From: Escherichia phage Qbeta
Length of the DNA stretch: 4,217 bases
Direction: 5' to 3' (one strand)
Sequence record: AB971354.1
Numbering within the stretch: position 1 is the first letter of the stretch; each line of letters starts with the position of its first letter. Below the pieces are notes generated by a model, which saw only the letters and a program-made list of their open reading frames with translations, was not told the DNA's origin and searched no databases. The position numbers and the translations under genes are program-made. Of this stretch, positions 2,348 through 2,367 are shown piece by piece.

Positions 2348-2367
2348 ATGCATGTCTAAGACAGCAT
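2348..2367 (+). promoter_or_regulatory. Coat-protein translational operator hairpin enclosing the replicase start codon
   Basis: Read directly in AUGCAUGUCUAAGACAGCAU: A2348-U2367, U2349-A2366, G2350-C2365, C2351-G2364, A2352 bulged, U2353-A2363, G2354-C2362, U2355-A2361, C2356-G2360, loop U2357-A2358-A2359. An 8-bp stem with a bulged A and a 3-nt loop is the known architecture of the Qbeta operator. The replicase AUG (2352-2354) lies in the 5' arm. Confidence 0.88.

Follow-up and report, generated by a model that had tools for sequence, protein, structure and literature searches.

We find that the 20-nucleotide element AUGCAUGUCUAAGACAGCAU, at positions 2348..2367 of the plus strand, is almost certainly the translational operator of the Qβ replicase gene itself, and not a relative of that operator. 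The window, i.e. the whole stretch of DNA analyzed here, is 4217 nt long and covers in full the plus-strand genome of bacteriophage Qβ (Qubevirus durum), and our identification draws on the fold of the element, its genic context, its published sequence and covariation among related phages. The operator is a textbook element, characterized since the 1970s-80s, and its recognition here is not a discovery. Weber is said to have described it as the translational operator of the Qβ replicase in 1976. Earlier studies of the operator also include Witherell & Uhlenbeck 1989 and Lim, Spingola & Peabody 1996, and the decisive evidence, namely filter binding, genetic repression assays, the crystal structure 4L8H and the cryo-EM model 7LHD, is already published.

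Gene coordinates were taken from AY099114, which is 100% identical to the window over positions 41-4200, such that its replicase start at 2312 falls, with an offset of 40, at 2352; dozens of other Qβ genome records match the window at an identity of at least 99%. Together with the list of open reading frames, this annotation places on the plus strand the A2 maturation protein (61-1323), the A1 read-through protein (1344-2333) and the gene for the replicase beta-subunit (2352..4121), which is under the control of the operator; the annotation further gives the coat protein gene, also on the plus strand, at 1344..1742 (1344-1745 in the layout of open reading frames). The leaky coat stop codon, UGA at 1743-1745, gives rise to A1 by read-through, with the extended frame ending at 2331-2333, as is standard for alloleviviruses. 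Comparison of the coat translation with the PDB recovered the Qβ coat chains 5KIP, 1QBE and 4L8H with E-values of 1e-77 to 6.6e-84. The product of this gene is the repressor, which acts in trans by binding as a dimer to the operator, and the cognate protein of the RNA element is encoded in the same genome.

The replicase initiation codon, AUG at 2352..2354 on the plus strand, is the start of the CDS in AY099114 and the sole AUG kept at this position across M11, MX1, SP, FI and NL95. It lies inside 2348-2367, in the 5' arm of the hairpin, just where the initial annotation had put it. Complementarity to the 3' end of the 16S rRNA points to AAGGAUG at 2339..2345 on the plus strand (core AGGA at 2340-2343, 8 nt 5' of the AUG) as the probable Shine-Dalgarno (SD) region, with relatives showing AAGGAG at the equivalent site. 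This putative SD is placed just 5' of the 20-nt hairpin and outside it. The mechanically generated list of open reading frames lets the replicase frame begin with an ATG at 2343, in frame with the annotated start at 2352 and upstream of it. We also observed that this upstream AUG (2343-2345), which lies within the putative SD, would add Met-Lys-Cys to the protein, and that a second, out-of-frame AUG at 2348-2350 opens a mini-ORF of 3 codons, AUG CAU GUC UAA, for which the operator loop provides the stop codon. Both of these upstream AUGs lack conservation outside the Qβ subgroup.

The initial annotation had described a hairpin of 20 nt, made up of a stem of 8 bp, one bulged A and a loop of 3 nt, and this description is exact: ViennaRNA returns ((((.((((...)))))))) as both the minimum-free-energy (MFE) and the centroid structure of the 20-mer, at -5.7 kcal/mol. 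The lower stem is formed by the pairs 2348-2367, 2349-2366, 2350-2365 and 2351-2364, and the upper stem by 2353-2363, 2354-2362, 2355-2361 and 2356-2360, which close a loop of U2357, A2358 and A2359 (U+6, A+7 and A+8) with an adenine at its 3'-most position; the hairpin thus totals 8 base pairs, one bulged A (A2352, or A+1) and the 3-nt loop UAA. The bulged A2352 is the A of the AUG, and only U2353 (with A2363) and G2354 (with C2362) of the codon are paired. In the isolated 20-mer, the MFE structure accounts for 61% of the ensemble. All eight pairs are in the MFE structure, with probabilities of 0.82-1.0, when the region is folded in segments of 200, 400, 600, 900, 1300 and 2000 nt, and they are still there, at the lower probabilities of 0.56-0.68, in a segment of 121 nt. 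Hence, from 121 to 2000 nt, no alternative that frees the AUG is preferred. In the fold of 1300-3300, the probability that A2352 is unpaired is 1.0.

The assignment to the Qβ operator is direct. The identical 20-mer appears under the name 'the Qβ RNA operator' in a published account, which describes it as having a stem of eight base pairs and a three-nucleotide loop (PMC12724129). In the whole-genome cryo-EM model of Chang et al. 2022 (PMC8880383), which uses the same residue numbering as we do, 'the actual translational operator' is stem-loop 34, residues 2351-2364, and in the virion it is bound to a C/C capsid coat dimer. There is accordingly no difference between the element and the known operator, which share the same 20 nt, the same genome and the same coordinates as stem-loop 34. 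The complex of the coat dimer with the operator is available as a crystal structure, PDB 4L8H, from Rumnieks & Tars 2014; the last loop adenine, A+8, is reported to enter the adenine-binding pocket of the coat protein, and A+1 and A+7 to stack on tyrosines of the two coat monomers, in the summary that PMC12724129 gives of Lim et al. 1996 and Rumnieks & Tars 2014. PMC11724954 likewise states that the bulged A stacks on Y89 in 4L8H. The identification of the hairpin as a coat-protein binding site by the initial annotation is thus borne out by the identical published 20-mer, by 4L8H and by the placement of 2351-2364 on a coat dimer in the cryo-EM model, and its statement that the coat protein represses replicase translation late in infection agrees with the literature on Qβ (PMC7467689, PMC2978339).

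By energy alone, the operator hairpin is unremarkable, and RNA genomes of this kind are generally structured. The 20-mer has a z-score of -2.4, with 7 of 200 shuffled versions being equally stable, and 56 sites of the genome have a 20-nt MFE at or below -5.7 kcal/mol, as against about 26 in dinucleotide-shuffled genomes. This lack of exceptional stability would fit a palindrome that arose by chance or as a by-product of coding, as would the fact that 12 of the 20 nt encode M-S-K-T. Nevertheless, we regard this explanation as scarcely credible. The exact architecture, counting Watson-Crick pairs only, occurs once in the genome, as against 0.047 expected per dinucleotide-shuffled genome, and that one occurrence covers the start codon; moreover, across the relatives the two halves of the lower stem, the 5' one non-coding and the 3' one coding, covary, and there is direct structural and biochemical evidence in the literature (PMC12724129, PMC11724954, PMC8880383). 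A chance palindrome is ruled out by the covariation and the published complexes. The complement of the 20-mer on the minus strand folds equally well, at -5.7 kcal/mol, with no G-U pair to mark the strand, and therefore the assignment to the plus strand rests on the gene context and the literature. At E <= 1, no Rfam 15 family matches the operator region; across the whole genome, none reaches the gathering threshold, and the two matches at E <= 1, mir-2076 and P24, lie elsewhere, are at chance level and fall far below their gathering scores. The operator, though well described in the literature, and other well-studied RNA elements of Qβ are without Rfam models.

We examined 19 Qubevirus sequences, comprising the Qβ strains TW18, HL4-9, BR12, BZ1 and GIII_C, FrMerlot, two IMG/VR contigs, M11, MX1, wild-type and mutant SP, NL95, FI 4184b, HB-P22, HB-P24, BR1 and BR8, and found a hairpin on the replicase AUG in every one of them (19/19). 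Common to M11, MX1, SP, FI and NL95 are an AUG placed in the 5' arm, an upper stem of UGUC/GACA, a loop of the form N-A-A and a 4-bp lower stem. A search of IMG/VR with the N-terminus of the replicase recovered five loci, two of which (L008 and L009) carry an operator 20-mer identical to that of Qβ; this search yielded no new operator variants, with one of the five loci stopping short of the replicase start. Covariation was counted on an alignment of operator sequences trimmed to their core, which contains 8 distinct variants from one genus. Standard pairs form in 63 of the 64 pair cells, and the two basal pairs are doubly compensated, the first occurring as U-A, A-U or C-G and the second as A-U or U-A. 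The resulting covariation score of 0.321 compares with 0.077 ± 0.041 in column shuffles, 0 of 500 of which reach 0.321, and with at most 0.041 in controls in which the 3' partners were slid by 1-3 columns; this evidence comes from two basal pairs in 8 distinct sequences of one genus. The six inner pairs are invariant apart from one mismatch, and as they overlap codons 1-4 (Met-Ser-Lys-Thr) and are also contacted by the protein, they neither support nor contradict the structure. In the loop, position +6, the third position of the Ser codon, is U or A among the 8 variants, while A+7 and A+8 are invariant, which fits their published role in recognition.

The operators of M11, MX1, SP, FI and NL95 are thus like that of Qβ in forming a hairpin on the AUG and differ from it in the basal pairs, by covariation. 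Two further departures concern particular phages. In M11 (L002, 2348-2369) and MX1 (L003, 2347-2368), the operator is 22 nt long, with two extra nucleotides (UC or CU) in the 3' arm, such that A+1 has a U available for pairing and the bulged base is instead a C of the 3' arm; this form has a C-G basal pair and is the stronger hairpin, with a predicted stability of -8.3 kcal/mol. Wild-type SP (L013, X07489, 2438-2457; also L004) reads UAGCAUGCCAAAGACAGCUA, and its second codon is CCA (Pro) in place of UCU/UCA (Ser), which generates a C+4·A mismatch in the upper stem. As an isolated 20-mer, the SP sequence folds at only -1.8 kcal/mol with a 7-nt loop, and it is the source of the sole unpaired cell among the 64.

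Beyond the genus, the operator of MS2/R17 (Emesvirus) offers the closest functional parallel considered here: it is likewise a hairpin of about 20 nt bearing the replicase start codon, the coat dimer recognizes loop adenines and an unpaired purine of the stem, and the operator is both the site of translational repression and a site of encapsidation. The MS2 hairpin has a 4-nt loop, a 7-bp stem, a bulged A-10 and the AUG in its 3' arm. In contrast, the present hairpin shows a 3-nt loop, an 8-bp stem and the AUG in the 5' arm, and so departs from the MS2 type; the difference in loop size and stem length is that described in the literature, where the Qβ operator is likewise given a 3-nt loop and an 8-bp stem (PMC12724129). 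The element, then, works like the MS2 operator and belongs to the Qβ subtype. Wild-type MS2 coat protein discriminates against the Qβ hairpin unless its residue 89 is changed (PMC12724129).

Among the Qβ records compared, only one difference internal to the operator was found, and it is confined to the stock of one laboratory. Three records from that laboratory, GQ153929, GQ153930 and GQ153931 (L023, L027 and L028; record position 2350), which include 'QB_ancestral', read AAAUGCGUGUCUAAG and hence start the replicase with GUG and have G, not A, as the bulged base (A2352G), while the present genome, AY099114 and the evolved isolate QB_1 (GQ153928) have an A at 2352. The predicted fold and energy are unchanged by A2352G, at -5.7 kcal/mol. 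The base at 2352, which is at once the bulged and the initiator base, is thus polymorphic among viable laboratory stocks, and a bulged A is not strictly required for the fold. The difference between 'QB_ancestral' and QB_1 suggests that a G-to-A change occurred during evolution; a literature search on A2352G and the GQ1539xx accessions found nothing relevant. Qβ-AZC clones from 5-azacytidine evolution lines (KC137671, KC137650 and KC137656) carry C2371U or C2378G, changes that fall a short way 3' of the operator, within the helix predicted to follow it (2369-2374 with 2405-2410), and the sampled KC1376xx evolved clones have no change inside the operator.

The title of the initial annotation spoke of a hairpin 'sequestering' the replicase start codon, and taken literally this would include masking by the RNA alone, as a purely structural device that needs no protein. 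In favor of such an explanation, two bases of the AUG, its U and its G, are in base pairs, and the predicted probability of the hairpin in its genomic context is high. Against it, the stability is only -5.7 kcal/mol, with the 61% share of the MFE structure in the ensemble of the isolated 20-mer given above; the first base of the AUG is left unpaired, and the putative SD lies outside the hairpin; and early infection needs replicase to be made from the same RNA. Hairpins with a stability of about -5.7 kcal/mol reportedly reduce initiation only marginally, a result ascribed to de Smit and van Duin in 1990, which also counts against masking by RNA alone. Further, the literature credits the coat protein with the repression (PMC2978339, PMC7467689). 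On the whole, we consider a protein-independent mask highly unlikely. Since the free hairpin is marginal and the putative SD lies outside it, 'sequestering' is accurate for the protein-bound state and inaccurate for the RNA alone.

Repression by the bound coat protein, which we favor, would proceed as follows. Early in infection, the hairpin would be weak enough, at -5.7 kcal/mol, for the 30S subunit to melt it and initiate at the AUG at 2352; the free hairpin is probably not itself strongly inhibitory, presenting only a marginal obstacle to the ribosome, and therefore replicase could be made at this stage. As coat protein builds up, a coat dimer binds the folded hairpin, with A+8 (A2359) entering the adenine pocket of one subunit, and A+7 and the bulged A+1 stacking on tyrosines of the two, as the crystal structure is described in the literature. 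The bound dimer would then lock the start codon in the helix and occupy the landing site of the ribosome, such that replicase synthesis would stop. Binding of the dimer and coat-dependent repression are both supported by the literature, through 4L8H, the cryo-EM model and the published statements on repression, while the steric exclusion of the 30S subunit by the bound dimer is what we infer. The same contact between coat protein and RNA persists in the virion, with the stem-loop sitting on a capsid coat dimer, and because of this persistence the isolated hairpin is usable as a tag for loading Qβ virus-like particles (VLPs).

Such loading had also been anticipated by the initial annotation, which named the hairpin as a packaging signal in VLP technology. 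It is indeed in use: the 'Qβ hairpin', described in that setting as a 29-nt hairpin, serves as an encapsidation hook for VLPs (PMC5399791), and the Qβ hairpin and its coat protein form an orthogonal RNA-protein pair beside those of MS2 and PP7 in synthetic biology (PMC11724954, PMC5399791). An alternative is that the main role of the element is to nucleate capsid assembly or packaging, with translational repression being secondary. The operator indeed contacts a capsid coat dimer in the virion (PMC8880383), reviews call it 'a strong encapsidation site', and it works as a packaging tag for VLPs (PMC5399791). However, coat dimers are contacted in the virion by 33 operator-like stem-loops, of which it is but one, and the true operator is found on a C/C dimer and not in the pentamer-rich patch of nucleation (PMC8880383); furthermore, translational control, and not packaging, accounts for its strictly kept place on the replicase AUG in every relative. 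We hence judge it improbable that packaging is the principal role. The two roles are nonetheless compatible with each other and not exclusive, and the operator does not act alone in packaging the genome, for which many hairpins are used, as seen in the 33 operator-like contacts.

We also noted ten simple hairpins in the window that combine an unbroken stem of 5 or more base pairs with a 3-nt loop whose last base is A, located at 7-19, 628-640, 706-726, 1361-1377, 2250-2266, 2329-2341, 2915-2927, 3050-3062, 3926-3938 and 4129-4147. Eight of the ten coincide with 'operator-like' stem-loops of the cryo-EM model (Table S1, PMC8880383). Hairpins of this simple kind are not enriched in the genome, the count of 10 comparing with 8.4 ± 2.9 in shuffled genomes.

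One of these hairpins, CUUAG-UAA-CUAAG at 2329..2341 on the plus strand, lies directly upstream of the operator. It folds weakly, at -1.0 kcal/mol, and in the cryo-EM model of the virion it is listed as the operator-like stem-loop 33 (PMC8880383, Table S1). The tandem stop codons of A1, UAG (2331-2333) and UAA (2334-2336), fall within its 5' arm and loop, and the first 3 nt of the putative SD are shared with its 3' arm. The fold of 1300-3300 predicts a different partner for this region, namely the coat-gene segment CAUCCGUUACU at 1591..1601 on the plus strand (coat codons 83-86), which is predicted to pair with 2332-2337 (AGUAAC) and 2341-2345 (GGAUG, in the putative SD region) with probabilities of 0.90-0.97. 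The operator stays folded beside this predicted pairing, which conflicts in part with stem-loop 33 of the virion. In a comparison with relatives (L002, L003, L005, L013 and L014), both partners were found to be changed in M11/MX1 (GAAGG/CCUUC versus GGAUG/CAUCC in Qβ) with complementarity retained, while for SP, FI and NL95 the predicted partner of this coat segment is instead the operator's 3' flank, at +16 to +23. The pairing of 1591-1601 is a candidate link that might couple replicase initiation to the translation of the coat gene.

Extending this, it could be argued that replicase initiation is mainly governed by the pairing of the putative SD with coat codons 83-86, which would be opened by ribosomes translating the coat gene, and that the operator would be a late off-switch. 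We treat this as possible though rather doubtful. The high predicted pair probabilities, the complementarity kept in M11 and MX1 and the use of the same coat segment on the other flank of the operator in SP, FI and NL95 speak for it. Conversely, the pairing is a prediction of an energy model, the virion cryo-EM model has 2329-2341 as a local hairpin (PMC8880383), and work from the Priano group indicates that replicase expression is not strictly dependent on coat translation (PMC2978339). Moreover, such a pairing would complement the function of the operator without replacing it. We therefore take the long-range pairing as a plausible complement to the operator mechanism that lies outside the confirmed finding.

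More tentatively still, the operator might act as a fixed hinge for a conformational switch, in which its flanks would either pair with coat codons 83-86 or fold locally, with the 5' flank being used in group III (Qβ, M11 and MX1) and the 3' flank in group IV (SP, FI and NL95); this idea, which draws on energy-model predictions and on one contradiction derived from cryo-EM, we think unlikely. If it were true, the coat-paired state would make replicase initiation dependent on coat translation, and the local state would be that of stem-loop 33. Older secondary-structure papers by van Duin, Beekwilder and Jacobson probably describe part of such a switch.

In conclusion, the coordinates, anatomy and mechanism of the operator were rightly read from the raw sequence in the initial annotation, and the result is thus useful as a calibration. 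The operator remains in practical use today as a packaging tag for Qβ VLPs and as half of an orthogonal pair in synthetic biology. The element at 2348-2367 is one of the founding examples of both a specific RNA-protein interaction and translational repression.
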